A DNA stretch of 64,000 nt from Actinomycetota bacterium (GTDB lineage Bacteria; Actinomycetota; Acidimicrobiia; Actinomarinales; Actinomarinaceae): assembly GCA_014384285.1 (NCBI GenBank), contig JACNGE010000014.1:72427-136426 (forward strand), read 5' to 3'. The position numbers and the translations under genes are program-made. Each line of letters opens with the position of its first letter. Position 1 is the first letter of the stretch. Shown here one piece after another: positions 4,502 through 52,582 of this stretch. The notes beneath the pieces are model-generated. The model was not told the DNA's origin. It did not search any database and saw only the letters and a program-made list of their open reading frames with translations.

Positions 4502-4556
4502 TCCTTTAGGATAGCGTTCAAACTATATATAGTGTAATCATAAGTAGTATGAGTTA

Positions 4557-5444: not shown

Positions 5445-6271
5445 ATGAATTATTTTTTTCGATAACTTATCCACCCATCCCAATAACAGAAATAGGACCA
5501 GTTGCATTTTCATTACATGGAGTATTTGCAGCTTTAGGTTTTTATTTTGGATCAACTTATGCAATTAAGTTATGTGTAAAAGATGGAGAAGATGATGAAC
5601 TTTTTTCAGATGCCTTTACTTGGGCAATTTTTGGGGCAATCATTGGGGCAAGATTTTTTACAATCCCGGCTCATATTGGCGATCCCGGGTATGGATTAGA
5701 TGATGTATTTTCAGTTGCTGGAAGTTACTCAATAATGGGAGGGATGTCCGGCGGAATAATTGCAGCATATTTTAGAATTGTATTGATAGGCAAAGCAAAC
5801 TTTCAAACCTATAGCGACTATGCAGCTCCAGGATTAATTATGGGTATAGCAATTGGAAGAATTGGTGATTTAGCAATCGTTGAACATCTAGGTAGAGCTA
5901 CGGAGTTTGTTCTTGGATATGAAATTAAACCAGGATATGATGTAGCACCTCAACACAATGCACTTGAGTGTATTGCACCAGAGATTACTTGTGGGACTTA
6001 TCATCATGTCGCTATGTATGACCTTATTCTTGCAACCCTCTTCTTTTTCGTATTTAAATACTTACAAAATAATCTAAATTATGGAAGTGGTTCCTGGATA
6101 GGCTTATGGGCTATTTGGTATGGAATTCAAAGAATGATTTTGGACACATTGAGATTTGGAATGGGAGACGCGACTATAGGTATTTTTACATGGAATCAAA
6201 TTGGTGGAGCAACACTTGCTAGCATCGGTTTACTAGTCTTCCTTAGATTTAAAAATATTAAAACAAGCTGA
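5441..6271 (+). CDS. lgt: Prolipoprotein diacylglyceryl transferase
   Basis: Matches Lgt signature blocks (IGPVA.S.HG, GGMSGG, IAPG..G.AIGRIGD). The ORF track starts it at GTG 5417; ATG 5441 gives an ATGA overlap with the ctaB stop and is the more likely start. Confidence 0.8.
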   Translation: MNELFFSITYPPIPITEIGPVAFSLHGVFAALGFYFGSTYAIKLCVKDGEDDELFSDAFTWAIFGAIIGARFFTIPAHIGDPGYGLDDVFSVAGSYSIMGGMSGGIIAAYFRIVLIGKANFQTYSDYAAPGLIMGIAIGRIGDLAIVEHLGRATEFVLGYEIKPGYDVAPQHNALECIAPEITCGTYHHVAMYDLILATLFFFVFKYLQNNLNYGSGSWIGLWAIWYGIQRMILDTLRFGMGDATIGIFTWNQIGGATLASIGLLVFLRFKNIKTS

Positions 6272-7181
6272 AGATAAATAAAGAATATGCGCCAAGCATT
6301 GAAAAACCTATAAGCGGACTTCTTTTAATCCTACTCCTTGAGATGATTATTACTACTAAAGATACAAAATACATCAGGAACATTTGAACTAATACGTCTA
6401 ACTCAATATTCCCTGGTTGGATAACAATAGATGCACCTCCAACTAAACCTATATTGAATAAATTTGAGCCAAAAATATTACCAAATATTAAGTCTGGTTT
6501 TTTTAACCTTGCAGCTGCAATTGTTCCAGCTATTTCTGGAAGACTTGTTCCAAGAGCAATCACAGTTACTCCAATAATTAACGATGAGATTCCAAATAAT
6601 TCAGCAAGATCTGTTGCATTATTCACAACTAAAGAGCTACCAAATATTGTTGCACCCAATGACAGTACAGCTTTTGGCCAGACATTAGTAATAGTCTCTT
6701 CTAAATATTCCTCATCTTCAATAGCTTCTTCGTTTACCAATCTATATGTAATAGCTGTAACAAGTATGAGTAATGTAACTCCTAAGATAAATGGAAATTC
6801 CTTAATTAAAACATAGCTCGAGACAAAGACTGTCGTTACAACCATCATCCATAGTGGGGAAGTCGGATTTAATTTTATTTTTTTATCATACGTAGCATCA
6901 ATAAATAAATATAACACTGCAACCACAAGCAGTGAGTTTGCAATATTTGAACCAATTATGTTCCCAATTCCTAAAGATAAATCCCCATTAAGTGCAGCAC
7001 CTGTGCTTGCAAACAACTCAGGAGCAGAAGTTCCAAATCCAATAAAAGTAGCTCCAATTATTGATGCAGGAATTTTAAGTTTTAGTGCAATCTGTACTGC
7101 AGACTTCACCATAAGATCTGCACCCTTAACTAAAAGTATAAATCCAGCTGCAAGGCCCAAGAGAATAATTAAAATGTCCAT
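6258..7181 (-). CDS. Ca2+:cation antiporter (CaCA family, YrbG-like Na+/Ca2+ exchanger)
   Basis: 307 aa polytopic protein with two alpha-repeat motifs, GTSAPELFAS and GTSLPEIAGT. Confidence 0.8.
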   Translation of the reverse strand: MDILIILLGLAAGFILLVKGADLMVKSAVQIALKLKIPASIIGATFIGFGTSAPELFASTGAALNGDLSLGIGNIIGSNIANSLLVVAVLYLFIDATYDKKIKLNPTSPLWMMVVTTVFVSSYVLIKEFPFILGVTLLILVTAITYRLVNEEAIEDEEYLEETITNVWPKAVLSLGATIFGSSLVVNNATDLAELFGISSLIIGVTVIALGTSLPEIAGTIAAARLKKPDLIFGNIFGSNLFNIGLVGGASIVIQPGNIELDVLVQMFLMYFVSLVVIIISRSRIKRSPLIGFSMLGAYSLFIFSLF

Positions 7182-10564: not shown

Positions 10565-11933
10565 TGTGTATGTATTCGTCTGAATTCAATAGTTGTACAG
10601 TGTGGCTCCCAAAAAAGTCTCTTTGCGCTTGGATTAAATTTGAAGGATTATCATCTGCACTTAAATTAAGGTACCAACTCAAACTTGTAGAAAAAACTGG
10701 TAATGAAATATTTTTTAATATTGAGGAACTTACAATTTCTTTTATATTTTTAAGATTTTTTTTCAGCAAATCATGTAACTGACTCGAATGTAATAACTTA
10801 TCGGATGAATTATTTATTTCTATAAATTCATCAAGCATCTCAGACCTAATAATGCATCCACCGCTCCAGTTATTAAAAATATCTTCAAAATTAAAGGAAA
10901 ATTTGTTAACTTCGTTGTACCTCTCAATTATCGTAAGACCTTGAATCATAGATGCAACTCTTCCAAAATAGAGAGATTTAGCAAGGGCGGTTTGAAGACT
11001 CAATTTTTCTGAATCATCCAAATTATCTTTATTATCTTGAATTCGTGATGTAGAACTTGTTTTCCAAAAATAATCTGTATTACTTTGAACCCGTGCGTCA
11101 TATGCTGAATATATTGATGGAGCTGATACTCCAAGTTCAAATGAAGTTTCTATCGTTAGTCTTCCAGTCCCCTTGTTATTTGCCAAAGATTTTATTAAAT
11201 CAACAGTAAAGTATTCTCCGTCTTTTTTTCTTAGTATTTCAGAGGTGATTTCAATTAAGTATGAAGATTGATTTATTTTTTTCAGAGAACTAAAAAAATC
11301 TGCTATTTGAAGGTTGTTAAATCCAGTTCTTTTTAATAAATGATAACTTTCAGCAATCAGCTGCATTTCTGCATATTCAATACCGTTATGAACCATTTTT
11401 ATAAAGTGACCAGAACCAGAGCCTTCATAAAAACCTACACAGTCGTGTGGTGCTTTTGCTGAAATAGAAGATAATAATTCAATCAAATCTCCATCTAGAT
11501 TGTTATTTGAGCCCACCATTATAGCTGGGCCATATCTTGCCCCCTCTTCTCCACCGGAAACACCCATGCCAATGAATTTTATATTCTTTTTAGACAAGTT
11601 TTCCCCATGATGAATACTTTCTTGATAAAAAGAGTTACCGCCATCAATAACTACATCATTTTCATCTAACAAATTCGAGAGCTGATTTATTAATTTGCTA
11701 GTAGGTTCTCCTGATGGAATCATTAATAGAAGATTTCTTGGACGATCCATATTCTCAACAAGCTCTTCAAGGGTTGTGTATCCTGAGAAATTTCCATCGA
11801 ATTCTTTTTGTACAGCTTCTAATTTTTTGGAAGAATTATTGAAAGCTTTTATATTTGTACCCTTTTCTGCAATATTTAGGCCAATGTTTTTCCCCATTAC
11901 ACCAAGTCCAATTAATCCAATTTCACCCAACAT
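10542..11933 (-). CDS. gnd: 6-phosphogluconate dehydrogenase, decarboxylating
   Basis: 463 aa with an N-terminal GLIGLGVMG Rossmann motif and the 6PGDH C-terminal domain. Confidence 0.9.
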   Translation of the reverse strand: MLGEIGLIGLGVMGKNIGLNIAEKGTNIKAFNNSSKKLEAVQKEFDGNFSGYTTLEELVENMDRPRNLLLMIPSGEPTSKLINQLSNLLDENDVVIDGGNSFYQESIHHGENLSKKNIKFIGMGVSGGEEGARYGPAIMVGSNNNLDGDLIELLSSISAKAPHDCVGFYEGSGSGHFIKMVHNGIEYAEMQLIAESYHLLKRTGFNNLQIADFFSSLKKINQSSYLIEITSEILRKKDGEYFTVDLIKSLANNKGTGRLTIETSFELGVSAPSIYSAYDARVQSNTDYFWKTSSTSRIQDNKDNLDDSEKLSLQTALAKSLYFGRVASMIQGLTIIERYNEVNKFSFNFEDIFNNWSGGCIIRSEMLDEFIEINNSSDKLLHSSQLHDLLKKNLKNIKEIVSSSILKNISLPVFSTSLSWYLNLSADDNPSNLIQAQRDFFGSHTVQLLNSDEYIHIDWREDE

Positions 11934-13255
11934 TATTTTGGATCTTTCATTATTTTTAAATCTTTTAACTTACTTACTAATTTGCTTCTCATTTTTATTT
12001 CAATTAATAATAAATCAGAACTATTTTTTACTTCTAAAATTTCACCAAATCTATTTACGTGTTCCAAATTTTTTGGCTCAACCAAGAATGAGTCTTTTAT
12101 AGTTTCTCCATATATTTCTTTTGAAATTGTTTCGACAAGCTCATCAATACCAGTTTGTTTTAACGATGAAATAAATAAAGCTTGAGGATATCTTTCTGCT
12201 AGGTCGTTTAAAGAAGCTCTGTCGATTTTATCAACTTTATTAAATACCATAATTTCATTAGCACTAACTTCAATTTGTTTTAGGATCTCTCTTACCGTAG
12301 CAATATGCATCTCAGGAATAGCTGTTGCTGCATCAACTACATGTATTAATAGATCTGCACTCGTAGCAACTAATAAAGTTGATTTAAAAGACTCAATGAG
12401 TGTTGTTGGTAAATTTTGAATAAAGCCAACTGTGTCTGATAAGATCAAAGGCTCTTGGACATCTTTTACGGGAAGCTCTCTTTGTAAAGAGTCAACTGTC
12501 GCAAAAAGTTCATCTGCAGCATATGCATCTGAATTAGTCAAAGATTTCAACAAGGTAGATTTTCCAGCATTCGTATACCCAACAATTGATACCAAAGGAG
12601 TGTTCTTCTTCTCTCTGGAACTCGCCTGAAGTAGTCGCTGCCTCTCAATTTTCTTAAGCTCTTTTCGTAATTTATTTATGCGGTTATCAATTAACCTACT
12701 GTCAGTTTCTAACTTAGCTTCACCAGGTCCTCGTGTTCCAATTCCACCACCTTGTTGGTTTAAAGTTTTCCCCAAACCTGCAAGTCTAGGTTTAAGATAT
12801 ACAGACATGGCTAACTCAACTTGTAGATTGGCCTCTTTCGACTGTGCATGTAATGCGAAAATATCAAGAATTAAACCAGTTCGGTCAACTACATCGCACT
12901 GAAAAATTTCTCTAAGTTCTTTTTGCTGATTTGGATTGAGTTCACAATCAAAAATAACTACATCAATATCATTCGCCTTTGATAAAACCTCAAGGTCATT
13001 GATAGAACCTTTTCCAATGAAAGTTTTTGGATCAATTCGGTCAACTCTTTTTGTTTGAACAATTGTTGGATTTGAACCTGCTGTTTTTACAAGACTTGTT
13101 AGCTCTTTTAAAGATTCTTCACGATCAGCTCTTGTTTGATTTTTTAGAATAATTCCAACAAGCAAAGCTTTTTGAACCGTTACAAATATATCTTTGTCAG
13201 ATACTGTTAGCAACCGTCTATCAGTTTGATTTGGATTATTATTTCTTTGATTCAA
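11933..13255 (-). CDS. hflX: GTPase HflX
   Basis: 440 aa with an HflX N-domain followed by a G-domain (GYTNAGKSTL G1, DTVGF G3, NKVD G4). Confidence 0.9.
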   Translation of the reverse strand: MNQRNNNPNQTDRRLLTVSDKDIFVTVQKALLVGIILKNQTRADREESLKELTSLVKTAGSNPTIVQTKRVDRIDPKTFIGKGSINDLEVLSKANDIDVVIFDCELNPNQQKELREIFQCDVVDRTGLILDIFALHAQSKEANLQVELAMSVYLKPRLAGLGKTLNQQGGGIGTRGPGEAKLETDSRLIDNRINKLRKELKKIERQRLLQASSREKKNTPLVSIVGYTNAGKSTLLKSLTNSDAYAADELFATVDSLQRELPVKDVQEPLILSDTVGFIQNLPTTLIESFKSTLLVATSADLLIHVVDAATAIPEMHIATVREILKQIEVSANEIMVFNKVDKIDRASLNDLAERYPQALFISSLKQTGIDELVETISKEIYGETIKDSFLVEPKNLEHVNRFGEILEVKNSSDLLLIEIKMRSKLVSKLKDLKIMKDPK

Positions 13256-13308: not shown

Positions 13309-13403
13309 TGGCGGAGGTGGACGGGAATCGAACCCGCCAAAGACTTTTACACCTTTCACCAGTTTTGAAGACCGGGGAGCCCACCAGGCGCTCATTCACC
13401 TCC
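13309..13403 (-). tRNA. 95-nt long-variable-arm tRNA with anticodon UCA. It would decode UGA, so it is a tRNA-Sec (selC) candidate or a Ser-type opal suppressor.
   Basis: Reverse complement: GGAGGTGA-AT-GAGC-GCCTGGTGG-GCTC-C-CCGGT-CTTCAAA-ACTGG-(21-nt variable arm)-GCGGG-TTCGATT-CCCGT-CCACCTCC-G-CCA. The anticodon loop CUUCAAA gives U33, anticodon UCA, A37. The discriminator is G73 and CCA is encoded. There are 8 nt between the T-stem and the discriminator, the 8/5 layout typical of tRNA-Sec, and the loop is identical to the E. coli selC anticodon loop. Confidence 0.7.
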
Positions 13404-38889: not shown

Positions 38890-38956
38890 TATCTTGCATG
38901 AAGAGAGGGTAACCTCAGCAACCTAGAAAGCAAACAAAGGTGCTAGAGATGCGGTT
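38890..38956 (+). promoter_or_regulatory. SAM-riboswitch-like aptamer (SAM-I/SAM-IV superfamily core blocks) in the metK leader
   Basis: GCATGAAGAGAGGGTAACCTCAGCAACC...AAGGTGCTAGAGATGCGG is homologous, block by block, to a second element upstream of metY. It has AAGAGAGG after P1, a short hairpin followed by CAGCAACC, an AAGGTGC block and a GAGATG P1 3' strand. A U6 tract and a CCUUCC anti-SD-like run follow, upstream of the AAGGAG SD. Confidence 0.6.
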
Positions 38957-39013
38957 TTTTAAAACAAAAAATATGCTACCTTCCTTCATAAACATTTTAA
39001 GTAAGGAGAGCTT

Positions 39014-40102
39014 ATGAATAAATTAGTCACTGCTGAAACAGTCTCACCAGGGCATCCAGACAAGATAGCAGATTTAATCTCTGACTACGTTTTAACTCAA
39101 GCACTAGAAAACAACAGTTCTTCAAAAGTTGCAGTTGAAACTTTTTTAACTGGAACAAAAAATGGTGGGTTGGTACTCGTTGGAGGAGAGATTAGCGAAA
39201 TCGCAAATATCTCTACAGAAGATATTAATGACATTGTAAAAATGGCTTTAGATAAAACAATCAAAACTAGTTTTGAAGACTTTGATTTAGACAAACTTTC
39301 CATATATAACGAACTTACCCCACAATCCGAAGAAATAAGAGCGGCTGTTGAAGATGATAAAAATCAAGGAGCTGGAGATCAGGGAATCATGGTTGGTTAT
39401 GCAACCAACAGAACCAAGTCATTCATGCCTGTTACGTTTGATAAATCAAGGAATATTCAAAAAAGCTTATGGGACCTACAAAATGCTGACTCAATGCTTG
39501 ATCTCGATTCAAAAGTTCAAGTCACAAGTGGAGGTGATAAAACCAAAGTAGTTTTTTCAACACAACATCAAGTGGGTATTGATCTAGAAAATTTACACGA
39601 AAAAGTTACTGAGATTGTTTCACAACACATTTCAGAAGATTTCATTCTAGATTTAAATCCTTCAGGCTCTTTTGTAAAAGGTGGACCAGCAGGAGACACT
39701 GGTCTTACAGGCCGAAAGATTGTTGTTGACGCATATGGACCTTCAGTTCCTGTGGGAGGAGGAGCTTTTTCTGGAAAAGATCCTAGCAAAGTTGACAGGT
39801 CAGCAGCTTATGCCGCCAGACACCTATCTAAAAATATTGTTGCACACGATTTAGCTGATAGGTGCCAAGTTAGGGTTGCTTATGCGATTGGTAAAGCAGA
39901 CCCTTATGAGTTATCTGTTGACACATTTGGCACAGAAAAAAAAGAGTCAAATGTGCTCAATGATTTTATTACAAAGTTTGATATGAGACCTGCTGCAATT
40001 ATTGAGAGATTAAGTCTATTAAATGTGGACTATAGAACAGATACACTATTTTCTCATTTTGGCCATGACGATCGTAACTGGGAAAAAATAGAAAATTTCT
40101 AG
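39014..40102 (+). CDS. metK: S-adenosylmethionine synthetase
   Basis: 362 aa with the N-terminal ETVSPGHPDKIADLISD block and the C-terminal GGGAFSGKDPSKVDRSAAYAAR glycine-rich loop. Confidence 0.9.
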   Translation: MNKLVTAETVSPGHPDKIADLISDYVLTQALENNSSSKVAVETFLTGTKNGGLVLVGGEISEIANISTEDINDIVKMALDKTIKTSFEDFDLDKLSIYNELTPQSEEIRAAVEDDKNQGAGDQGIMVGYATNRTKSFMPVTFDKSRNIQKSLWDLQNADSMLDLDSKVQVTSGGDKTKVVFSTQHQVGIDLENLHEKVTEIVSQHISEDFILDLNPSGSFVKGGPAGDTGLTGRKIVVDAYGPSVPVGGGAFSGKDPSKVDRSAAYAARHLSKNIVAHDLADRCQVRVAYAIGKADPYELSVDTFGTEKKESNVLNDFITKFDMRPAAIIERLSLLNVDYRTDTLFSHFGHDDRNWEKIENF

Positions 40103-40133
40103 AAACAAATAAAAAGACTGATATAATTTAAAT

Positions 40134-40200
40134 ATACATTAAGAGAAGGTTAAGACCTCAGCAACCTGGATGACTCTCCAAGGTGCTTGAAGATGTGGCA
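40134..40200 (+). promoter_or_regulatory. SAM-riboswitch-like aptamer in the metY-metX leader
   Basis: ACATTAAGAGAAGGTTAAGACCTCAGCAACCTGGATGACTCTCCAAGGTGCTTGAAGATGTGG is a paralogue of the metK leader element. A TATAAT -10 box lies at 40122..40127 just upstream, and a CCCTCTCC anti-SD lies downstream near the GGAGA SD. Confidence 0.6.
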
Positions 40201-40249
40201 GAAATGCAACTAACTAGTCAAAACCCTCTCCAACTTAAAGGAGAAACAT

Positions 40250-41530
40250 ATGAAATACGAATCAAAACTACTACATGCAGGTTGGGATTCTGATGCTGAT
40301 TCAGAGGGCTCAATTACCGTGCCAATTTATAAAACTACAGCTTATCAATTTAATAATACTGAGCACGCTGCAAACTTGTTTGGATTAAAAGAATTTGGAA
40401 ACATTTACTCTAGACTTGGAAACCCAACAGTTGGGGCTCTTGAAGCTAGATTAACTGCTTTAGAGGATGGAGCAATGTGTGTGGCATTAGCATCTGGGAC
40501 ATCTGCCGTAATGTATTCATTAATTAATATTATGAGCCAGGGTGACAACTTTGTTACAGCTAGTCAACTATATGGTGGAACATACACAATGTTTGATAAT
40601 ATTTTGCCAGAGTATGGAATTAATGCAAAAAAAGTAGATATAACTGATCTAAAAGCTGTTGAAGATCAAATAGATGAAAAGACAAGAGCAGTCTACTGTG
40701 AGACAGTAACTAACCCAGGACTTGTAGTTGCAGATGTATCAGCACTTTCAGAAATCGCACACAAACATGGCATACCTTTGATTGTTGATGCAACATTTAC
40801 AACATCTGCCCTTCAAAAGTCTTTTGATTTTGGAGCAGATATTGTTGTATATTCACTTACAAAGTGGATGTCAGGTCACGGAAGAGTTATAGCAGGAGCC
40901 GTGATAGAAAAAGGTGGTTTCGATTGGGGAAATGGAAACTTTCCACTTTATGACAAACCAGATACTAGCTATGGCGGCATGCGCTGGGGCCATGATCTTG
41001 GTGACCTTAGTAATGTCGCATATTCTTTAAGGTTAAGAACAGTTCCGCTTAGAAACTTAGGAGCCAATATGTCACCTGACACCGCTTTTGAAGTTATGTC
41101 AGGACTTGAAACCCTTAGTCTAAGAATGGAAAGACATTGTAGTAATGCAAATAAAGCTGCAGAGTTTTTATCCAACCATGACTTAGTTGAATGGGTCAGG
41201 TTTCCCGGACTAAAGGATGATCCATCACATGAATTATCCAAAAAATATCTTAACGGTACTGGTGGAACTATGGTTGTTTTTGGTATCAAGGGTGGAAAAG
41301 AGGCTGGTCAAAAGTTTATCGATAACCTTAAGATGTTTAGACACGTAGCGAATGTTGGAGATACTAGATCATTAGCAATACATCCTGCTACTACAACTCA
41401 TTCTCAATTAGATGATGAGGCTTTAGTAGCCGCAGGGTCACCGCCAGAACTAGTTAGACTATCTATAGGTATTGAAAACATAGAAGATATTATTGAAGAT
41501 CTTTCGCAGGCACTTGAAAGTTCAAAATAG
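40250..41530 (+). CDS. metY: O-acetylhomoserine aminocarboxypropyltransferase (O-acetylhomoserine sulfhydrylase)
   Basis: 426 aa PLP-dependent Cys/Met metabolism family enzyme with the SLTKWMSGHG PLP-lysine motif. Confidence 0.9.
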   Translation: MKYESKLLHAGWDSDADSEGSITVPIYKTTAYQFNNTEHAANLFGLKEFGNIYSRLGNPTVGALEARLTALEDGAMCVALASGTSAVMYSLINIMSQGDNFVTASQLYGGTYTMFDNILPEYGINAKKVDITDLKAVEDQIDEKTRAVYCETVTNPGLVVADVSALSEIAHKHGIPLIVDATFTTSALQKSFDFGADIVVYSLTKWMSGHGRVIAGAVIEKGGFDWGNGNFPLYDKPDTSYGGMRWGHDLGDLSNVAYSLRLRTVPLRNLGANMSPDTAFEVMSGLETLSLRMERHCSNANKAAEFLSNHDLVEWVRFPGLKDDPSHELSKKYLNGTGGTMVVFGIKGGKEAGQKFIDNLKMFRHVANVGDTRSLAIHPATTTHSQLDDEALVAAGSPPELVRLSIGIENIEDIIEDLSQALESSK

Positions 41531-42599
41531 CAATTTATCACTACTCCAGATTGAACAATTTAAATTAGAATCTGGACTAATTTTAGATGAAGTTGAAATA
41601 GCCTATACAACGTATGGGCAACTTTCAAAATCTGGAGATAATGCAATTCTTGTTTTCCATGCCCTAACCGGAAGCCATCTACTTGCGGGAGAATACGAAC
41701 AATTTGATGATTCAAATCTTCCATGGAATGATGAACTAGAACTTGGTTGGTGGGATGACTTTGTTGGTCCCAACAGAGCCATTGATACAAGTAAATATTT
41801 CGTTATATGTGCAAATTATCTTGGTGGTTGTTATGGGTCCACGGGACCAAATTCTGGGCAATTTTATCCAGGAAAAGAATTTCCAGAAATAGATTTTAAA
41901 GATATTGAGAACACACAAAAAAAATTAGTTGAACATCTAGGCGTTAAATCATTACATGCTGTGGTAGGACCTTCAATTGGAGGACTGATGGCTCTGGAGT
42001 TTGCTGCTAGATTTCCTAATTTTGTTAAAAAAATTATTTCAATTTCTAGTGGATTTGAAATTTCTACATTGCAACTACTGCACAATCTTGAGCAGGCTTA
42101 TGTATTGAACTTAGGAAAAAATTCTGAGGAAAGAAAAAAAGAGTATCTAGCTCTGGCAAGAATGATTGCGCACAAAACGTATATTTCACTTGAACTTCTT
42201 GCAAACAGAGCAAAAGAAGAAACTAAATACAAACCCGAGCATTTAGATGGATTTATAAAAACCTCTGAGGAATCATATATGATGCACCAAGGCGAAAAAT
42301 TTATAGAAAGATTTACAATTGAATCATATTTATCAATAATACGTGGATGGCAAAATTTCAAGTTGCCTGAAAGTCTGCTTCCAAACTTGTCATCTACTGA
42401 CGTATTAATTTTAAGTGTTGACTCAGATGTATGTTTCTACCCCGAGCAACAAACCCGATTATCTAAAATTTTGAGTCAAAATGGTTGTACGGTAAAAATT
42501 GAGCATTTGCATTCTGAAAAAGGTCACGATAGTTTTTTGTTAGAACCTAATATATACGAGTATCCAATTAAAACCTTTCTAGAATCTCGCGAAAAATAA
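41493..42599 (+). CDS. metX: Homoserine O-acetyltransferase
   Basis: 368 aa alpha/beta hydrolase with the GPSIGG nucleophile elbow. The annotated TTG start overlaps metY by 38 nt, so the start is uncertain. Confidence 0.85.
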   Translation: MKIFRRHLKVQNSNLSLLQIEQFKLESGLILDEVEIAYTTYGQLSKSGDNAILVFHALTGSHLLAGEYEQFDDSNLPWNDELELGWWDDFVGPNRAIDTSKYFVICANYLGGCYGSTGPNSGQFYPGKEFPEIDFKDIENTQKKLVEHLGVKSLHAVVGPSIGGLMALEFAARFPNFVKKIISISSGFEISTLQLLHNLEQAYVLNLGKNSEERKKEYLALARMIAHKTYISLELLANRAKEETKYKPEHLDGFIKTSEESYMMHQGEKFIERFTIESYLSIIRGWQNFKLPESLLPNLSSTDVLILSVDSDVCFYPEQQTRLSKILSQNGCTVKIEHLHSEKGHDSFLLEPNIYEYPIKTFLESREK

Positions 42600-43156: not shown

Positions 43157-44425
43157 ATGTCTAATCAAATCGAAGAAAAATTTTTATTAAACATTGATAT
43201 TGAAAAAAAATATGTCATAGCTTTAAGTGGTGGGGTTGATAGTGCGGTACTTGCTCATCTAGCAAAAAAGTATTGTAAAAATGTTAGAACATTATTTGTA
43301 AATCACAATCAGAAACATTCAAACGAACTTGAATCTCAGGCAGAACACATAGCTAGTGAATTTAATCTTGAATTTGTCTCCTTGCAAACTTCACTTGAGC
43401 CAAATTCATCTGAAACACAGATGAGAAATATTAGAATTAATGAATTATATTTAAATATTGAAGAGGATGAATATCTTCTATTTGGACACACGCTTTCGGA
43501 TAAAGTTGAAACATTTTTTTTAAATATATTCAGAGGCACCCACTTACAAGGATTAAAGTCTACGCCTCATAGGGTCAACAGGACACTAAGACCTCTATTG
43601 GATGTCTCAAAAGAAGAAGTAATTGCTTACGCTGAAATTAATAAAATTGAATATTTAAATGATGAAACTAACTTTAATCAAGAAATAAATAGAAACTGGA
43701 TAAGAAATAATATTTTCAAAGAAGTACAGGAAAGATTTACTGGCTCACTTGAAGAAAAAGTTAAACAAATTATTTCAGAAGTGGAGTATTTACTTCCTCA
43801 GAATATACCAATATTAAAATTTGTTAAGCTAAGCAAAGGCTATATAGAGCTTCCAATTTCAATGATAAATTTTAAGAATCCGGAACTACTTTCTTTGTTT
43901 TCATTAATTGGAAAAGCCATTGGCCTATCAGGAATGGAATCAAAAGATCTTGAGAAAATAAAAGAAGTGATTAGAACAGGCAAGCAGACAAGTTTTACTA
44001 GTGAGTGGTATTGTATAAAGTCTTCTTCACTTTTAATTTTTATCAATAAAAAATTGTGGGTTGAACAAAAAAAACAACATGAATTTAATTATGGATACCT
44101 TAACTTGTCTAAACATCCTAGTGTGCCATTTTATAATAATTGGAATATCGCAGTTCCCACGCAGGAGGAGAGAATTTTAACAAGAACACTTAAAAACGGT
44201 GACAAAATACAAATCAACGACAGTAACCAGAAAGTATCTGAAGTAATGAGGTCCTTCGGCATCAGAGGATTAATGAGAGAAGTCTGGCCGGTTGTACTAT
44301 TAGAGAACGAAATTATTTGGATTCCCGGTATTAGAAAATCTGATAAGGCTCTTGACTTTCAAAAAAATGATTTTTCACATATAATTGTTGCTTCAGTGCA
44401 AAAGGATAAATTTGAAAGTTACTAG
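43157..44425 (+). CDS. tilS: tRNA(Ile)-lysidine synthetase
   Basis: 422 aa with an N-terminal PP-loop ATPase motif (LSGGVDS). Confidence 0.85.
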   Translation: MSNQIEEKFLLNIDIEKKYVIALSGGVDSAVLAHLAKKYCKNVRTLFVNHNQKHSNELESQAEHIASEFNLEFVSLQTSLEPNSSETQMRNIRINELYLNIEEDEYLLFGHTLSDKVETFFLNIFRGTHLQGLKSTPHRVNRTLRPLLDVSKEEVIAYAEINKIEYLNDETNFNQEINRNWIRNNIFKEVQERFTGSLEEKVKQIISEVEYLLPQNIPILKFVKLSKGYIELPISMINFKNPELLSLFSLIGKAIGLSGMESKDLEKIKEVIRTGKQTSFTSEWYCIKSSSLLIFINKKLWVEQKKQHEFNYGYLNLSKHPSVPFYNNWNIAVPTQEERILTRTLKNGDKIQINDSNQKVSEVMRSFGIRGLMREVWPVVLLENEIIWIPGIRKSDKALDFQKNDFSHIIVASVQKDKFESY

Positions 44426-44924
44426 AGAATTAATTTCTGCGGAAAAAATACAAGATAAAATACAAGAACTTGCAGATCTAATTAATAAAGACTACCAAAA
44501 TGATGAAGTAATTATTTTAGGGATTTTAAAAGGATCTTTCATTACATTATCTGATCTTGCTAAGAATTTAAAGGTAGATGTCACTTTTGAATTCATGAGT
44601 ATTTCTTCCTATGAAGGGTCTGAATCTACTGGGCAAGTTAAGATTGAAAAAGATTTAGACATAGACATAACAGGTAAGAATATTTTAGTTGTAGAAGATA
44701 TTTTTGACACTGGCCTTACGCTCTCCTCCTTACTTGAAGTTTTAAAATCAAGAAATCCCAAAAGTGTCGAAATCTTATGTACATTTATTAAAGAAGACAA
44801 GCAACAAATTCCAATAGACATAAAATATAAAGGTTTCACTATCGGTCCAGAATTTGTTGTTGGGTATGGCCTAGATTACAACGGTAAATATAGAGAGCTT
44901 CCATACTTAGGTGTACTTTCTTAG
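44385..44924 (+). CDS. hpt: Hypoxanthine-guanine phosphoribosyltransferase
   Basis: About 170-179 aa with the PRTase PRPP-binding motif (LVVEDIFDTGLTL). The true start is probably a TTG or GTG a few codons inside the ORF-track start, which overlaps tilS. Confidence 0.85.
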   Translation: MLLQCKRINLKVTRELISAEKIQDKIQELADLINKDYQNDEVIILGILKGSFITLSDLAKNLKVDVTFEFMSISSYEGSESTGQVKIEKDLDIDITGKNILVVEDIFDTGLTLSSLLEVLKSRNPKSVEILCTFIKEDKQQIPIDIKYKGFTIGPEFVVGYGLDYNGKYRELPYLGVLS

Positions 44925-44969
44925 ATTTCGCAATTACTTTTAAACGTGTCAGTATTAAATTAGTTAATA

Positions 44970-46823
44970 ATGGAAAATAAAGAAAAAAATAAAAACAGAC
45001 CATTTTTTTTATATGCTGCTTTAGGCTTATTAATTTTTCTCGGCGTACAACAATATAACGAAAACATCAATGCCCCAGAACAAGTCTCTTTTTCAGAATT
45101 TAAATCGCTAATTAATGAAAAGCAAATAGTTAAAGCAATAATTAAAGAGCAGTCCAATACATTACATTTTGAAGTAAAAGAGAAAACGGAAGTTTTTAAG
45201 ACTGAATATCCTGAAGGATTTGAAGGTGAAATATTTCAGTTACTTATAAATGAAGACATTGAACTAAGCACAGATACAGAACCAGCTGGATTTCAAGAGT
45301 ATTTCATAGCATTTCTTCCATGGCTTTTTCTTGCAGGATTTATGTTCTATATGTTTTCTCAAGTTAGAACTAACGGAAATCAGATTATGCAGTTTGGCAA
45401 ATCCAAAGCAAAAGAAATGGATGAAGAAGCTCCAAAAGTTACTTTCAAAGATGTTGCAGGGGCAGAGGAAGCAAAAGAAGAACTAGAGGAAATAAAAGAG
45501 TTCCTCAAATCTCCAGAAAAATTTAATAACCTAGGTGCAAAGATTCCAAAAGGAGTACTTCTAGTTGGCCCTCCAGGAACAGGAAAGACTTTACTCGCAA
45601 GAGCTGTAGCTGGTGAGTCTAATGTGCCATTCTTTAGCATTTCTGGGTCTGACTTTGTAGAAATGTTTGTTGGAGTTGGAGCAAGTAGAGTAAGAGACCT
45701 ATTTAAAAAAGCAAAAGATTCTTCTCCTGCAATTATTTTTATTGATGAAATTGATGCAGTTGGAAGAATGCGTGGAGCAGGTCTTGGAGGAGGGCATGAC
45801 GAGCGAGAGCAAACTTTAAATCAACTTCTTGTAGAAATGGATGGATTTGAATCTAACCAGGGAGTAATACTTATGGCTGCTACAAATAGACCAGATGTTT
45901 TAGATCCAGCATTATTGAGACCCGGAAGGTTCGATAGGCAAGTTATTGTTGATAGACCAGATCTTGAAGGAAGGACACAAATTCTAAAAGTTCATTCAAA
46001 AGACAAACCATTAGCAAAAAATATAGACCTAAAGACAATTGCTAAACAAACACCTGGATTTACAGGTGCAGACTTAGCAAACTTATTGAATGAATCTGCT
46101 TTATTAGCTGCTAGAAAAGACAAAAAGACTATATCAAACTTAGATATAGAAAATTCTATTGATAGAGTGTTAGCTGGTCCAGAGAAAAAAAGTAGACTAA
46201 TGAGCGATGATGAAAAGTTAATCATTGCTTATCATGAAACTGGTCATGCTTTGGTTGGGTGGGCATTGCCAAATGCAGATACTATCCACAAAGTTACAAT
46301 TATCCCAAGAGGTAGAGCATTGGGGTACACTCAAGCCCTCCCTGATTCTGAAAAATATCTTTCTTCAAAAGCAGAGTTAAAAGATAGATTAGCAATGTTG
46401 ATGGGTGGGAGAGTTGCAGAAGAGTTAATTTTTAAAGACCCAACAACAGGTGCATCCAATGACATTGAAAAAGCTACTGATATTGCAAGAAAAATGGTCA
46501 TGGAATTTGGAATGAGTGAAAAACTCGGCCCAATGTTATTCGGCAAGGGTTCAAATGAAGTTTTTCTTGGAAGGGATTACGGAAGACAACAAGATTATTC
46601 TGATGAAGTTGCTTCAGCAATAGATGAAGAGGTAAAAGTACTTCTTAATGATGCACATGCGATAGCGGGTAAAATTCTTAGAAAATTTAAGAAGCAAATG
46701 GATTCTATGGTTGAAGTCTTAATGGATAAAGAAACTATTGACAAAGAAGAGGTGTCAAGAATTTTTAAATCTATAAAAAAAGTGAAAATACAGGGTTCTG
46801 GCAAGACTCTCAAGTTGGCATAG
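44970..46823 (+). CDS. ftsH: ATP-dependent zinc metalloprotease FtsH
   Basis: 617 aa with an N-terminal TM pair, an AAA+ module ([15 protein letters not shown]) and the HETGHAL zinc site. Confidence 0.95.
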
Positions 46824-47383
46824 TGACAAAACTTAATAATGATCAAGAAATGTATACAAATTTATCAAACTTGATTCAAGAAACTACGAAAAAGTCTAAA
46901 GAAGAGTCGTTAGCCATTTCACAAAAATTTACTAAAGAAATAGAAAAAAAGCTCTCAAAAAATTTATCTGACTTAACAGAAATATTTTCGAGTCTTGATG
47001 ATGTTACCCACAGTCAGCCAATATATTTAAGTAACATTCCATTCGTAAGTTTATGTGAACATCATTTACTTCCTTTCTTTGGTTCTTTTGACATCGCTGT
47101 ATTTCCAAAAAATAAAATTGCTGGTATTTCTAAATTTAGCGATTTAATTTATTATCTATCGAATGACCTAACTCTTCAGGAGAAGATTACGCAAATGGTA
47201 GCTGAGATTATTCAAGAAGAATTAAACCCAGAGGGTGTTTTAACAAGAGTAACTGCAAAGCATCTTTGTGCAGATTTAATGAATCCTAAAAGTTCTATTT
47301 CAGACGTTATCACAACTTTTAGCACAGGAGTTTACGAGTTAGATTACTCACTCAGATCAGAAGCACTTACGAATTTCAAGTAA
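46823..47383 (+). CDS. folE: GTP cyclohydrolase I
   Basis: 186 aa with the SLCEHHLLPF zinc/active-site motif. Confidence 0.9.
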   Translation: MTKLNNDQEMYTNLSNLIQETTKKSKEESLAISQKFTKEIEKKLSKNLSDLTEIFSSLDDVTHSQPIYLSNIPFVSLCEHHLLPFFGSFDIAVFPKNKIAGISKFSDLIYYLSNDLTLQEKITQMVAEIIQEELNPEGVLTRVTAKHLCADLMNPKSSISDVITTFSTGVYELDYSLRSEALTNFK

Positions 47384-47384
47384 G

Positions 47385-48128
47385 TTGTTTTCCTGGGATA
47401 AATTTTTAAAAAATCTTTCTAACAATTTACTTGGAATAGTAAATATCACTAGTGATTCATTCAGTGGTGATGGGTTGCTCAACAAAGTAGACACCATTCC
47501 CAAAGTGTTTGAATCAGCATCAAAAAGGGATATAAAGTTTCTCGATATTGGCTGTATGTCTACAAAACCAAACTTCACCATGATAGAGACAGAGCAGGAA
47601 GTTTCAAGATTAAATACATTCGTACAATCTAAAAATGATACATTTCATTATTCAATAGACTCATTTAACCCAATCGTTGCTGAGGAAGCCCTAAAAAATA
47701 ATTTTATCGTTGTGAATGATGTTTCAGGTTCTAGAAATGAAAATTTGATGGATATTATTAAGAAGTATTCATCAGGGTTAATCATTTGCCACAGGAGTCA
47801 CAAATCCTCTTTCTTGCATGAAAAAATAGAGTATAAAGATGTCGTAAAGGAGGTTAAGGAAGATCTGAAAAGACAAGTTGATTATGTGTTGAGCAAAGGC
47901 ATCAGGAAAGAACAGATAGCTATTGATCCGGGATTAGGTTTTGGGAAAACTCAAGAACAATCTGCAAAACTCTTAGACTCTATTGACCAGTTTGTAGGAG
48001 GGTATCCATTAGTAGTTGGATATTCAAAGAAAAAGTTTACAAAATTACTAAAAGCCTCTGACCAAGAATTATTTACTTACTGTGAAAAACAGGGAGTATC
48101 TTTGATCAGGACCCACTTCATTGATTAA
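47385..48128 (+). CDS. folP: Dihydropteroate synthase
   Basis: 247 aa pterin-binding TIM barrel with an N-terminal GIVNITSDSFSGDG motif. Confidence 0.85.
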   Translation: MFSWDKFLKNLSNNLLGIVNITSDSFSGDGLLNKVDTIPKVFESASKRDIKFLDIGCMSTKPNFTMIETEQEVSRLNTFVQSKNDTFHYSIDSFNPIVAEEALKNNFIVVNDVSGSRNENLMDIIKKYSSGLIICHRSHKSSFLHEKIEYKDVVKEVKEDLKRQVDYVLSKGIRKEQIAIDPGLGFGKTQEQSAKLLDSIDQFVGGYPLVVGYSKKKFTKLLKASDQELFTYCEKQGVSLIRTHFID

Positions 48129-48174
48129 AAAATTTGTTAAACTACTATGGTTTAACACCTAGGAAAGGCTAAAA

Positions 48175-48645
48175 ATGGCAGGACTAAAACCGAACGATTT
48201 TCACTGGATAATCGAAGGAAAATTAGCTGTATCTGAATGTATAGGCGGTGGAGGTTTAACCTCGAGAAAAATTAGAAGAGAAGAAGAAGTTCAGTGGTTG
48301 AAAAGTAACGGCATCAATTCAATTTTTTCGTTACTTGAAACAGATTTTAATTTAACAAATTATCAAGAAGTAGGATTTAGAACCTATCATTTTCCATTAG
48401 GAGAAAATCCTCCAGTAGAATCAATCACAGTCATTTTTGAAGCTATAAAAGAAGCACTTTCTGACAAAGAAAGAAAGCTTCTGATTCATAGAGAGTATCT
48501 TGATGAGGAAGTACCCGGTATTTTGGCTGGATATTTGATTTATTCAAAGCTTTTAGATGACCCTATTTTTTCTAGGACAATTCTTGAACGTATTTTAGGC
48601 AAACCTCTTTCACCAAAAGCGATAGCTTTAATCCCTACTGCTTAA
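48175..48645 (+). CDS. Dual-specificity-phosphatase-fold protein lacking the catalytic Cys/Arg (DUSP23-like pseudophosphatase)
   Basis: 156 aa collinear with DUSP23-type phosphatases (NDFHWIIEGKLAVS..GINSIFSLLE..HFPLGENPP). The CX5R P-loop position reads IHREYLDEEVPG, so both the Cys nucleophile and the Arg are missing. Confidence 0.4.
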   Translation: MAGLKPNDFHWIIEGKLAVSECIGGGGLTSRKIRREEEVQWLKSNGINSIFSLLETDFNLTNYQEVGFRTYHFPLGENPPVESITVIFEAIKEALSDKERKLLIHREYLDEEVPGILAGYLIYSKLLDDPIFSRTILERILGKPLSPKAIALIPTA

Positions 48646-48648
48646 TAC

Positions 48649-48996
48649 ATGTCATTTGACATAAAAATTGAAGGCATAACTACACACGGTAAACACGGTG
48701 TTTACGATTCTGAAAAACTTAAAGAACAACTGTTTTTAATTGATTTACAAATAATTCTTAAAAATGAAACTGTTAAGGAAGATTCAATAAGTTCTACTAT
48801 TGATTATGCAAAGTATGTAGAAGAAGTTGAATATTTAGTTTCATCTTCATCATTTAATCTAATTGAGACCTTAGCGGAGTTTATACATACAAAATTAAAA
48901 AGTTCAAAAATCAAAAAATTAATAGTGACAGTTCACAAACCAAACACACCACTCAGTAAAAAGACACAAGATATTAGTGTTACATACAGTGGATAA
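48649..48996 (+). CDS. folB: Dihydroneopterin aldolase
   Basis: 115 aa with the FolB fold signature (IKIEGITTHGKHGVYDSEK). Confidence 0.8.
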   Translation: MSFDIKIEGITTHGKHGVYDSEKLKEQLFLIDLQIILKNETVKEDSISSTIDYAKYVEEVEYLVSSSSFNLIETLAEFIHTKLKSSKIKKLIVTVHKPNTPLSKKTQDISVTYSG

Positions 48997-49462
48997 TTAT
49001 CCAGGAGTAATTCTTTCTTTAGGGTCAAACATTGGCGATCGTAAAAATAATTTGAAAAATGCTTTAATTGAGCTTGAAAAGATTTCTGAAGTAAAGCTAA
49101 TATCTTCAGTTTATGAGTCAGAGGCATTGCTGGTAAACGACCAAAGAAATTTTTATAATATGGTTGTAGAAATAAATTATTTAAACACAGCTTTAGATTT
49201 GTTGAGAGATATCAAATTTATTGAAAAAAAACTTGGAAGACAAAAAAGCATTCGCTACGGACCCCGCCTTATAGATATAGATATCATTTTTTTTAAAGGC
49301 GAATCTGTCTCCTTAGATGAACTAACTATCCCACACTATGATTGGAGAAATAGGTTATTTGTAATTGAACCTTTAAGTGAAATTATTGATATTTCTGAAC
49401 TTTCTTACCTCGATATAAATGATCAGAAAGTAGAAAAAAAGGGTAATATTAGCTACAAGTAA
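48977..49462 (+). CDS. folK: 2-amino-4-hydroxy-6-hydroxymethyldihydropteridine diphosphokinase (HPPK)
   Basis: 161 aa with the N-terminal LSLGSNIGDR motif. It overlaps folB by 20 nt. Confidence 0.85.
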   Translation: MLHTVDNYPGVILSLGSNIGDRKNNLKNALIELEKISEVKLISSVYESEALLVNDQRNFYNMVVEINYLNTALDLLRDIKFIEKKLGRQKSIRYGPRLIDIDIIFFKGESVSLDELTIPHYDWRNRLFVIEPLSEIIDISELSYLDINDQKVEKKGNISYK

Positions 49463-49492
49463 TTACGGGCACCATTAAAGGGCACGATAAAT

Positions 49493-50314
49493 GTGAAACA
49501 TATAAAACAAATAACGAATGAAATGCTTCAAGAGAAACTTTTTTTTATTCCCACAATGGGGTCTTTACACAGAGGTCATCTTTCGTTAATTGAAAATGCA
49601 AAGCAGTTTGAATTAAAAATAGTCGTATCAATTTTTGTAAATCCAAAACAATTTAACGACTCTAACGATTTCAAAAAATATCCCAGAGACATTGAAAAAG
49701 ACTTTGATATTCTAAATAACTCAAAAATCGATTATTTATTTACCCCTGACAAAGAATATGTATATGGACAAAATTTTAAGAACATAATTCACTCAGGAAG
49801 CATTGGAAAAAAATATGAAGGAAAGTCGAGACCAGGACACTTCGACGGGGTACTAACAGTAGTTAATAGACTCTTTGAACTTGTGCAACCAAGGAAAGCA
49901 ATTTTTGGAAAAAAGGATGCACAGCAATTGTTTCTTATAAAACAGTATGTAGGTAAAAATAATTTAGATATTGAGCTGCTTGAAGGAGATATTATCCGAG
50001 ACTCTAATGGATTGGCTCTAAGTAGTAGAAATCAACTTTTAAGTGACCAGGGATTAGTTGCAGCCACTGGACTAAAGAGACATCTAGATACTCTCAAAGA
50101 GGAGTATCTTCAAACTCGAGATGTTAATCAATCAATTAATTATGCACTTGAGCAAAATAAGGACCGCAATCTCACAGTTGATTATCTTCACATCTTAGAC
50201 AAAAATACCTTTAGTAAATTAACTGAAGAGACTACAAATGCAATAATTATTATTGCAGGATATGTAGAGGGTATTAGATTAATTGATAATATTGATTTTA
50301 GAGTGGAAATTTAA
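49493..50314 (+). CDS. panC: Pantoate--beta-alanine ligase
   Basis: 273 aa with the PTMGSLHRGHLSLI (HIGH-like) motif. Confidence 0.9.
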   Translation: MKHIKQITNEMLQEKLFFIPTMGSLHRGHLSLIENAKQFELKIVVSIFVNPKQFNDSNDFKKYPRDIEKDFDILNNSKIDYLFTPDKEYVYGQNFKNIIHSGSIGKKYEGKSRPGHFDGVLTVVNRLFELVQPRKAIFGKKDAQQLFLIKQYVGKNNLDIELLEGDIIRDSNGLALSSRNQLLSDQGLVAATGLKRHLDTLKEEYLQTRDVNQSINYALEQNKDRNLTVDYLHILDKNTFSKLTEETTNAIIIIAGYVEGIRLIDNIDFRVEI

Positions 50315-51082
50315 ATGAAAAAAATTATAGCAATAGATATTGGTAACAGTGAAACTACTGTTGGTGTTGGCAATTCGAGCAAATGGGAAAGCTATCGCTA
50401 CACGACGAGAAAAACTATCACCTCAGATGAATTATTTATGATGTTTAATACAACGATTGATCTATCAAAAACTAATGATGAGATTGTTGATGGGGCAATA
50501 GTCTGTTCTGTAGTACCTCAGATTACGGAAAGTGTTGTATCGGCAATAAATAAATTTACATCTAAAGATGTTTTAGTAGTAGGGCCTGGTGTAAAAACTG
50601 GCTTAAAAGTAAACATTGACAATCCAAAAGAATTAGGACCCGATAGAATTGCAAATTCTGTTGGCGGCTTTAAAAAGATAAACAAAGAAGTTGTAATTGT
50701 AGATTTAGGAACTGCCACAACTTTTGATGTTGTTAACAGTAACAAAGAATATCTTGGTGGGTCTATAGCTCCCGGCATTAAAATAAGCTTAGATGCATTA
50801 ATTTCGAGGACGTCTTCCCTTAAATCTGTTGAACTTAAAGAACCTGGAAAAGTTATTGGAAAAAATACTTATGAAGCAATCCAGAGTGGTTTAGTTCTGG
50901 GCCATGCATCAATGATTGATTCAATGCTAGAAAAAATCATCTTAGAGTCTGAACTTTCTCCCGGTGTGGTAATAACTGGTGGGCTGGGAACTTTAATTCA
51001 ACCAGCATTAAACATAAATTCATCCTATGAAAAAAATCTAACTCTAGATGGACTTGAAGAAATATATAATTTAAATAATTAA
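50315..51082 (+). CDS. coaX: Type III pantothenate kinase
   Basis: 255 aa ASKHA fold with IIAIDIGNSETTVG. It abuts panC with no gap. Confidence 0.85.
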   Translation: MKKIIAIDIGNSETTVGVGNSSKWESYRYTTRKTITSDELFMMFNTTIDLSKTNDEIVDGAIVCSVVPQITESVVSAINKFTSKDVLVVGPGVKTGLKVNIDNPKELGPDRIANSVGGFKKINKEVVIVDLGTATTFDVVNSNKEYLGGSIAPGIKISLDALISRTSSLKSVELKEPGKVIGKNTYEAIQSGLVLGHASMIDSMLEKIILESELSPGVVITGGLGTLIQPALNINSSYEKNLTLDGLEEIYNLNN

Positions 51083-51091
51083 GCTATGTAA

Positions 51092-52582
51092 ATGAGCAAT
51101 TTTTCAAAATCAGAAAAAGAAATCTATGACCTAAGATTAGAGAAAATTCAATATTTTCTTGAACACAGCAAAGACCCATTTCCAACTCAGTTCACTGGAG
51201 GATCTAAAATAGCAGATATTATTACTAGGCACAACGACTTATTAGATGCAGAGCATTCGGGAGTTGAAGTTCAAATCCATGGCAGGATTTTAAATGGTAG
51301 ATCTTTTGGAAAGCTCTCATTTTATGATTTGGTTGATTATTCTGGAAAAATTCAACTACTTGTTGATTCGAAAACTTTGCCAGATGAAGAGAGTTTACAT
51401 TTCTCTAAATATGATTCTGGAGACATCGTTGGTGTTAAGGGAGAAGTCATGAAAACAAAAAAAGGAGAACTCTCCGTAAAGGTAATTAGTAGTACGATAT
51501 TGTCAAAGTCTCTAAGAACTTTGCCTGAAAAATGGCATGGCTTGAAGGACAAGGAAACTAGATTTCGTCAAAGGTATTTAGATTTTATAGTTAACCCAGA
51601 CGCTAAGCAGACTATAGAGACAAGATCAAAAGTTATTAATTCGATAAGAAACTTTATGCATGCCAAGGAATTCATAGAAGTTGAGACTCCAATTTTACAA
51701 CCTAAAGCAGGGGGTGCAATTGCAAAGCCATTTATAACCCACCATAACGCTCTGGATGTTGATATGTATTTAAGAATTGCGCCAGAACTTTATTTGAAAA
51801 GAATGATAGTTGGGGGTTTTGAAAAAGTTTTTGAGCTAGGTCGCGTTTTTAGAAATGAAGGGATAGATCAGACACATTCACCGGAATTTACAATGATGGA
51901 GAGTTATGAAGCATACACAAATGTAGAAGGTGTTATAAAGATGGTTGAAGACATGTGTTCAGCAGTATTTACAGATTTGCAGTTAAGCCATGAAATTTCT
52001 TTTGATGGAAAAAAAGCAGACTTCTCTTTTCCATGGGAAAAAGCATCAATGTTTTCATTAGTCTCAGAGTATGTAAACCTAAAAATTGAATTTGATTCAG
52101 ACTTAAACCATACTATTAAAGAGTTGAATACAAACAATATTGAATTCAGCGAGGATTCTAAAACTATAGGCCTTCTCGTTTATGATTTATTCGAAAGATA
52201 TGTTGAAGAAAATATAATAAACCCAACTTTTATAACAGACTATCCAGTAGAGGTGTCACCATTTGCTAGAAATAATAAAGATAACCCTAATGTAACCGAA
52301 AGATTTGAATTGTTTGCATTTGGAAGTGAACTTGCAAATGGGTTTTCTGAGCTAATTGATCCAATTGAGCAAGAAACTAGATTAAAATCTCAGGCCCAAA
52401 AAAAAGAATTAGGTGACGAGGAGGCACATGTTGAAGATATGGATTATATAGAGGCTTTAGAGCATGCCTTACCTCCTACAGGTGGGCTTGGATTTGGAAT
52501 TGATAGATTTGTGATGATGCTCACTGGAAATACATCAATCAGAGAAGTGGTAGCTTTTCCTCACTTAAAGCCAGAGAATTAA
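51092..52582 (+). CDS. lysS: Lysine--tRNA ligase (class II)
   Basis: 496 aa with an OB-fold anticodon-binding domain and class II motifs 1-3 (FRNEG; GGLGFGIDR). Confidence 0.95.
   Translation: MSNFSKSEKEIYDLRLEKIQYFLEHSKDPFPTQFTGGSKIADIITRHNDLLDAEHSGVEVQIHGRILNGRSFGKLSFYDLVDYSGKIQLLVDSKTLPDEESLHFSKYDSGDIVGVKGEVMKTKKGELSVKVISSTILSKSLRTLPEKWHGLKDKETRFRQRYLDFIVNPDAKQTIETRSKVINSIRNFMHAKEFIEVETPILQPKAGGAIAKPFITHHNALDVDMYLRIAPELYLKRMIVGGFEKVFELGRVFRNEGIDQTHSPEFTMMESYEAYTNVEGVIKMVEDMCSAVFTDLQLSHEISFDGKKADFSFPWEKASMFSLVSEYVNLKIEFDSDLNHTIKELNTNNIEFSEDSKTIGLLVYDLFERYVEENIINPTFITDYPVEVSPFARNNKDNPNVTERFELFAFGSELANGFSELIDPIEQETRLKSQAQKKELGDEEAHVEDMDYIEALEHALPPTGGLGFGIDRFVMMLTGNTSIREVVAFPHLKPEN

Follow-up and report, generated by a model that had tools for sequence, protein, structure and literature searches.

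DUSP23 (VHZ; PDB 4erc, 2img) is a human atypical dual-specificity phosphatase (DUSP) and a eukaryotic signalling enzyme. PDB entry 25xa, a 'Dual specificity protein phosphatase family protein' of 162 aa, carries a canonical HCRAGYGRTG loop and a PLPD general-acid motif. KAP (CDKN3; PDB 1fpz) is an active cysteine phosphatase of CDK2. The STYX-type pseudophosphatases (STYX, PDB 2r0b; STYXL1) are eukaryotic signalling proteins; STYX retains the P-loop arginine and binds phosphorylated residues.

Folate synthesis is a classic antibiotic target. Between the reactions of GTP cyclohydrolase I and dihydroneopterin aldolase the pterin must be dephosphorylated, and in most bacteria no gene has yet been assigned to these steps. 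Most genomes lack a gene for the DHNTP pyrophosphatase, and a 'non-specific phosphatase' is credited with removing the last phosphate (PMC1971073). The candidates FolQ/NudB (Nudix DHNTP pyrophosphatases) and FolQ2 (HDIG), which are unrelated to each other, are phosphohydrolase-type genes that were recognised by their place in folate clusters and would act at the step before FolB (PMC1971073). Natural HPPK–DHPS and FolB–FolK–FolP fusions are described (PMC2994781, PMC9284294, PMC4224340).

The window, a 64,000-nt stretch of an Actinomarinaceae contig, contains a fol operon in which a gene with a predicted DUSP fold, here called X, stands between folP and folB (Table 1). All four fol genes pass the Pfam cut-off, and FolP, FolB and FolK also pass the curated cut-off of NCBIfam; FolE matches the NCBIfam FolE models, but below their cut-offs. 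The stop codon of X lies 3 nt from the start of folB. The spacer between folP and X is unusually long (46 nt). The GC content of the window is about 0.31–0.38, which makes it AT-rich and agrees with Candidatus Actinomarinales, for which a GC content of 33%, genomes of ~1 Mb and 2-bp spacers are described (PMC10205998). A 10-bp stem-loop can be drawn in the folP–X spacer at 48135–48157 (+ strand); it was rejected as a signal, having a z value of −1.6 against shuffles (not significant) and no conservation in the L001 clade of Actinomarinales. Across positions 46500–49700, promoter-like and terminator-like sites showed no excess over background. The hpt ORF of the window (44385–44924) overlaps the end of tilS; the sister Actinomarinales clade L001–L003 has no hpt between tilS and ftsH.

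Table 1. Gene X, its sequence elements and its neighbours in the window. Identity and pN refer to the comparison of the window with L001, a second Actinomarinales clade.
Feature	Position	Strand	Basis or remark	Amino acid identity	pN
Co-directional supercluster tilS-hpt-ftsH-folE-folP-X-folB-folK-panC-coaX-lysS	43157..52582	+	ORFs; order with Pfam labels repeated in relatives		
tilS	start 43157	+			
hpt	start 44385	+			
ftsH	start 44970	+			
folE (GTP cyclohydrolase I)	46823..47383	+	PF01227 E=5e-35	43%	
folP (dihydropteroate synthase), directly 5' of X	47385..48128	+	PF00809 E=3e-46; TIGR01496 above cut-off	42%	
Shine-Dalgarno-like AGGAAAGG, 6 nt 5' of the X ATG	48161..48168	+	direct sequence reading		
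X, 156-aa protein of predicted DUSP fold lacking the catalytic cysteine	48175..48645	+	ATG-started ORF, 156 codons	72%	0.18
Family signature S20-E-C-I-G-G-G-G-L-T-S-R-K-I-R-R-E-E-E38	48232..48288	+	consensus [SC]-E-R-P-G-G-x4-H-R-x-V-R-R-x-E-E		
Degenerate P-loop codons H105-R-E-Y-L-D-E-E112, replacing H-C-X5-R	48487..48510	+	gap-free alignment to HCRAGYGR of 25xa		
folB (dihydroneopterin aldolase)	48649..48996	+	PF02152 E=4e-25; TIGR00525 above cut-off	39%	
folK (HPPK), overlapping the folB end	48977..49462	+	PF01288 E=3e-34; TIGR01498 above cut-off	47%	
panC	start 49493	+		44%	
coaX	start 50315	+		60%	0.26
lysS	start 51092	+			

Searched alone, X gives no family above threshold in Pfam, NCBIfam or PHROG; its sole match is to CDKN3 (E=0.023), which is sub-threshold and carries no functional parallel. 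Among PDB sequences, a single-sequence search matched one dual-specificity phosphatase, 25xa, at E=2e-4, and with a profile of 28 diverse family members this match improved to E=1.8e-13. The profile also matches ShufPTP, DUSP3/VHR, Tk-PTP, DUSP19, DUSP10, CDKN3, DUSP23 and CDC14. The closest solved relative by sequence is 25xa, which shares with X the motifs W-[IV]-I-E-G-K-L-A-x-S-x-x-P-G-G and I-L-A-x-Y-L. An AlphaFold model of X built from a 102-sequence alignment reached a pLDDT of 91.8 and a pTM of 0.88; an earlier AF2 model, made from a shallow alignment (18 sequences, ≥69% identity), had a pLDDT of 52.8 and was discarded. The model has the five-stranded sheet, with the P-loop between strand 5 and helix 4, that defines the DUSP-type α/β fold. 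In a Foldseek search of the model, DUSP23/VHZ takes the first rank; behind it come baculovirus RNA 5'-phosphatase (BVP), KAP, Tk-PTP, PFA-DSP1, Siw14, PIR1 and Cdc14. A Nudix fold or Nudix box is absent: the fold is that of a DUSP, and the Pfam and NCBIfam scans return no Nudix family. The DUSP23-type fold proposed in the first-pass annotation is upheld by the confident model and the first Foldseek rank of DUSP23/VHZ; structure prediction did not come out, as it might have, with no phosphatase-fold match. X evidently descends from a bacterial cysteine phosphatase of DUSP23 type.

The catalytic cysteine of that ancestor is gone. In X, the loop between strand 5 and helix 4 retains its canonical length. 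Residue statistics were taken from 396 distinct full-length members of the X family. Cysteine occupies the nucleophile position in none of the 396; the window protein has Arg106 there and the position is hypervariable across the family (Q/R/E/G/K/M/H/A). The loss of the nucleophile, already pointed out from the single sequence, thus applies to the whole family, and because it is family-wide, X is predicted to be unable to act any longer as a cysteine phosphatase. The loss of the P-loop arginine (position 112, C+6), claimed in the same place, holds for the window protein, which has Glu112, but not for the family at large: arginine is kept in 220/396 members, the others having E/T/Q/L, so that it is lost in some clades only. 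Three other loop positions are well kept, with His105 present in 394 of the 396 members, E/D at position 107 in 376 and D/E at position 111 in 393. The old phosphate-binding loop has evidently become acidic and is, in part, free to vary. In the general-acid region, H72 and P74 of the H72-x-P74 motif are conserved at 74% and 80%, and the residues after it vary: G-E-N in the window protein, D at 28–41% in the family consensus, PLPD in 25xa. Position 20, strictly S or C, was considered as a relocated nucleophile and down-weighted; the sequences suggest a structural role for this small residue, because the active phosphatase 25xa also has Ser there. With a phosphatase fold, replaced essential catalytic residues and purifying selection, X has the marks of a pseudophosphatase. 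It is not to be filed as a phosphatase, because the residues that define catalysis are missing (the Cys and, here, also the Arg).

The strongest conservation lies elsewhere. Among 76 family representatives with <70% mutual identity, 18 positions are ≥90% conserved (G3, P6, W11, A18, E21, G24, G25, R31, R34, R35, E37, E38, W41, N59, Y63, H105, G115 and A133), and E21, G24, G25, R31, R34, R35, E37 and E38 reach ≥92%. A six-residue insert at positions 30–35 (H-R-x-V-R-R) stands opposite a gap in 25xa, the closest active relative. Since R31, R34 and R35 fall in this segment, the most conserved element of the family appears to be its own Arg/Glu insertion at the start of helix 1, and not the old P-loop. 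The predicted secondary structure places the conserved polar and charged residues immediately behind strands 2, 3 and 5, where helix 1 begins, or, in the case of N59 and Y63, within the short helix 2. In α/β folds, the edge after the strands and at the helix starts is the ligand-binding edge; on this view, the conserved residues of X would cluster there in three dimensions.

X thereby differs from each of the described phosphatase-fold proteins. Its identity to DUSP23 is only 16–17%; unlike DUSP23, it lacks the Cys and, in this clade, the Arg, has the six-residue Arg-rich insert before helix 1 and is a gene of a bacterial operon. It differs from 25xa in the P-loop, the general-acid motif and the insert. 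X can be likened to a pseudophosphatase of the STYX kind, but it has no specific sequence relationship to the STYX-type proteins, and it is a bacterial protein with an acidic loop and an Arg-rich insert of its own, encoded in a biosynthetic operon. The folds of FolQ/NudB and FolQ2 are unrelated to that of X; these proteins have intact metal-dependent catalytic motifs, whereas no activity is predicted confidently for X.

A HMMER search of 1.84 billion representative proteins found 291 relatives of X at E≤1e-3, and a profile search of a 5.8-billion-protein set gave at least 1,369 family members, none of which has a Pfam domain or a name other than 'hypothetical'. When one genome per species was scanned, X was found in at least 564 genomes, the best 80 of which are all Acidimicrobiia metagenome-assembled genomes; in the remoter subgroups, the few members with a named source likewise belong to Acidimicrobiia. 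The nearest homologues, 85–99% identical, are marine metagenomic proteins, and those with a named source come from Acidimicrobiaceae or Actinomycetota. Close relatives with contigs of 1.01–1.04 Mb retain X; the order is known for streamlined genomes (PMC10205998). Pfam, NCBIfam and PHROG contain no model for the family, and literature searches found no description of it or of a phosphatase-like gene in actinobacterial fol operons.

The gene context was counted in 80 species-representative loci (the best 80 of at least 564 genomes), using for each count only loci that extend far enough. Within this set, folP is the next gene upstream of X in 75 of 78 loci and folB the next gene downstream in 74 of 76. 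The protein stands alone, with a length of ~157–185 aa, and in most loci the distance from its stop codon to the start of folB is −7 to +40 nt. The order is retained in relatives whose X is 72% identical and in those where identity falls to 31–41%. The first-pass annotation had seen X as a gene interrupting the folate operon. A 156-aa ORF does separate folP from folB, but the arrangement is not peculiar to this genome: the survey of folP–X–folB neighbourhoods that it called for shows the order conserved across Acidimicrobiia loci. By its distribution, X is evidently an ancient, class-wide component of the Acidimicrobiia fol operon and not a recent insert.

Two supposed features of the family were discarded. 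Lys/Ala-rich C-terminal tails, seen in some database members, are absent from 76/80 genome loci, the few long 'tails' there being read-through. Apparent FolP–X fusion proteins (P0226, P0235, P0241, P0243, P0250), considered as physical coupling, are frameshift artefacts of high-GC assemblies; out-of-frame stretches rich in Arg, Pro and Ala run through the three sequences read (P0226, P0235 and P0243), and the match to X is confined in all five to its N-terminal part, covering at most residues 2–78. Putative fusions among neighbouring enzymes of the operon occur as called genes in other Acidimicrobiia: FolK–PanC of 436 aa in L088 (6015–7325) and FolB–FolK of 283 aa in L005 (6513–7364).

Variant loci show which neighbours persist. 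L088 has the order tilS-hpt-X-folB-folK::panC, and L089 and L091 have tilS-(small ORF)-X-folK-panC. In L090 and L092 (about 4000–7100), the order is ftsH-folP-X-folK; folE and folB are absent from the locus, as checked by tblastn, so that genomes of this type may make the early pterins by another route or have the two genes elsewhere. The most persistent neighbour of X is folK, with folB between them or not, since the variant loci keep X and folK with or without folB. In L045 and L076 (about 4000–6400), X stands between tilS and fpg (formamidopyrimidine-DNA glycosylase) with clpC nearby; the whole block from hpt to lysS is missing from the neighbourhood and no fol gene lies within 5 kb. A remote member, P0251, also without the Cys, is encoded in L093 (6001–6489) between a portal/MuF-like protein (phrog_859) and a major head protein (phrog_777), in a phage-like element of 70% GC. 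Searches of 50,697 phage records and of IMG/VR gave no further viral copy, and a phage origin of X was rejected, as this single remote homologue in a phage head module has no companion there. Overall, X is directly upstream of folB or folK in five of six remote loci.

Selective constraint was estimated by comparing the window with L001 (Table 1), at a distance where synonymous sites are saturated. The pN of the Fol enzymes and PanC is 0.39–0.42, and that of X is less than half of this. In high-GC Acidimicrobiia, X is about as conserved as the Fol enzymes (median identity 61% vs 52–68%). These values point to a protein that is functional and under strong constraint. Loss of both catalytic residues would also suit a dead gene, so that the ORF might be thought a decaying relic or a chance reading frame without function. 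The conservation data exclude this for practical purposes, leaving it a negligible probability: at least 564 species-level genomes carry the gene in intact form and the family counts at least 1,369 proteins, identity between the two clades is high in spite of the saturated synonymous sites, pN is under half that of the neighbouring enzymes, 18 positions are ≥90% conserved and the fold is predicted with confidence. The view of X as a conserved gene, neither absent nor frameshifted in relatives, is thereby confirmed.

We tentatively favour, with a probability of roughly 0.35, a role for X as an accessory of the pterin branch, devoid of the catalytic cysteine and binding a phosphorylated pterin and/or FolB, FolK or FolP; all three of its parts, namely the link to folate, the binding of a ligand or partner and the absence of catalysis, are what we infer. 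X would be made together with FolB and FolK, the stop and start codons being adjacent or overlapping. Its remodelled active-site face would consist of the acidic former P-loop with the invariant His105, the residues Arg31, Arg34, Arg35, Glu37 and Glu38 of the insert region at the start of helix 1, and Asn59 and Tyr63. The ligand of this face may be a phosphorylated intermediate of the pterin branch, such as HMDHP-pyrophosphate or the dihydroneopterin phosphates, and/or the face may dock FolB, FolK or FolP, so that labile intermediates would be handed on. An accessory role is favoured because X persists with folP and folK where folE and folB are absent from the cluster (L090, L092), because its stop codon and the starts of folB/folK adjoin or overlap, and because the natural fusions of FolB, FolK and FolP are a precedent for coupling. 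Position alone says little about function, because the supercluster also holds the unrelated tilS, hpt, ftsH and lysS. A role unrelated to folate (e.g. the binding of a phosphoprotein, a nucleotide or another partner) is nearly as probable as the accessory role; the place of X would then be an inherited order, kept since the gene entered the tilS-to-lysS supercluster in the ancestor of Acidimicrobiia. This supercluster mixes unrelated functions in an order that is kept across very divergent genomes; X is kept where folE, folB or folP has been lost from the cluster, and L045 and L076 keep it beside tilS though hpt, ftsH, all fol and pan genes and lysS are gone from the neighbourhood. The occurrence of X beside tilS without fol genes, and of a distant homologue in a phage head module, weakens the accessory role and suits an unrelated one. 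The phage case is unique, however, no alternative partner gene recurs, and the position directly upstream of folB/folK in most remote loci and of folB in nearly all main-family loci, with adjacent or overlapping codons, speaks against a mere inheritance of order.

The accessory role is further weakened because so many invariant Arg, Glu and His residues could equally well belong to an enzyme. X could be a non-canonical phosphohydrolase filling the gap between FolE and FolB, i.e. converting dihydroneopterin triphosphate to the monophosphate and then to dihydroneopterin as an analogue of the Nudix protein FolQ/NudB; we regard this as unlikely. The chemistry would have been re-invented on the phosphatase scaffold, e.g. 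with a divalent metal on Glu21, Glu107, Asp/Glu111 and His105, and with Arg31, Arg34 and Arg35 gripping the phosphates. We know of no cysteine-independent enzyme of DUSP fold. No member has the nucleophilic Cys, about 44% have lost the P-loop Arg, loop positions 106, 108, 110 and 112 vary more than a catalytic loop should, and X persists where folE and folB are both absent from the cluster as well as in loci without fol genes nearby. These observations have to be set against the position of a phosphatase-fold gene directly 5' of folB, whose enzyme needs a dephosphorylated substrate, and against a documented pathway hole (PMC1971073). Moreover, the structural neighbours BVP, PIR1, Siw14 and PFA-DSP1 are cysteine phosphatases acting on tri- or pyrophosphates, invariant Arg/Glu/His residues are typical of metal–phosphate sites, and the acidity of the loop at positions 107 and 111 is conserved. 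The full form of the proposal is rather improbable: X would be an active cysteine-independent phosphohydrolase with an active site made of His105, E/D107, D/E111, Glu21 and the inserted Arg31/Arg34/Arg35, and a third unrelated 'FolQ' for DHNTP and/or the monophosphate in Acidimicrobiia.

The family deserves a database model and a name whichever of these readings is true. It is an undescribed phosphatase-fold gene in the fol operon of an entire class of Actinobacteria that abound in soil, freshwater and the sea, retained even in close relatives from an order reported to have roughly 1-Mb genomes and, within that order, conserved more strongly than the surrounding enzymes. If X binds intermediates or enzymes, it would be, to our knowledge, the first DUSP-fold pseudophosphatase described in a bacterial biosynthetic operon, and the folate pathway would have a level of control or channelling that has so far escaped description. 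A catalytic X, on the other hand, would supply a missing folate enzyme and, as far as we know, the first case of cysteine-independent chemistry on the DUSP fold.

Some other features of the window were recorded. A selenocysteine tRNA is found at 13309–13403 (− strand; Rfam RF01852 at 75 bits, ARAGORN anticodon TCA), in what is apparently a streamlined genome of roughly 1 Mb. It is flanked by genes for an HflX-like GTPase (11933–13255) and 6-phosphogluconate dehydrogenase (10542–11933); neither selA nor selB was recognised among the window ORFs checked. Two SAM-I/IV riboswitches lie on the + strand. One, at 38891–38981, precedes metK (39014–40102); the other, at 40131–40223, precedes a gene for a Cys/Met PLP enzyme (metY-like, 40250–41530), which is followed by an α/β hydrolase gene (metX-like, 41493–42599).
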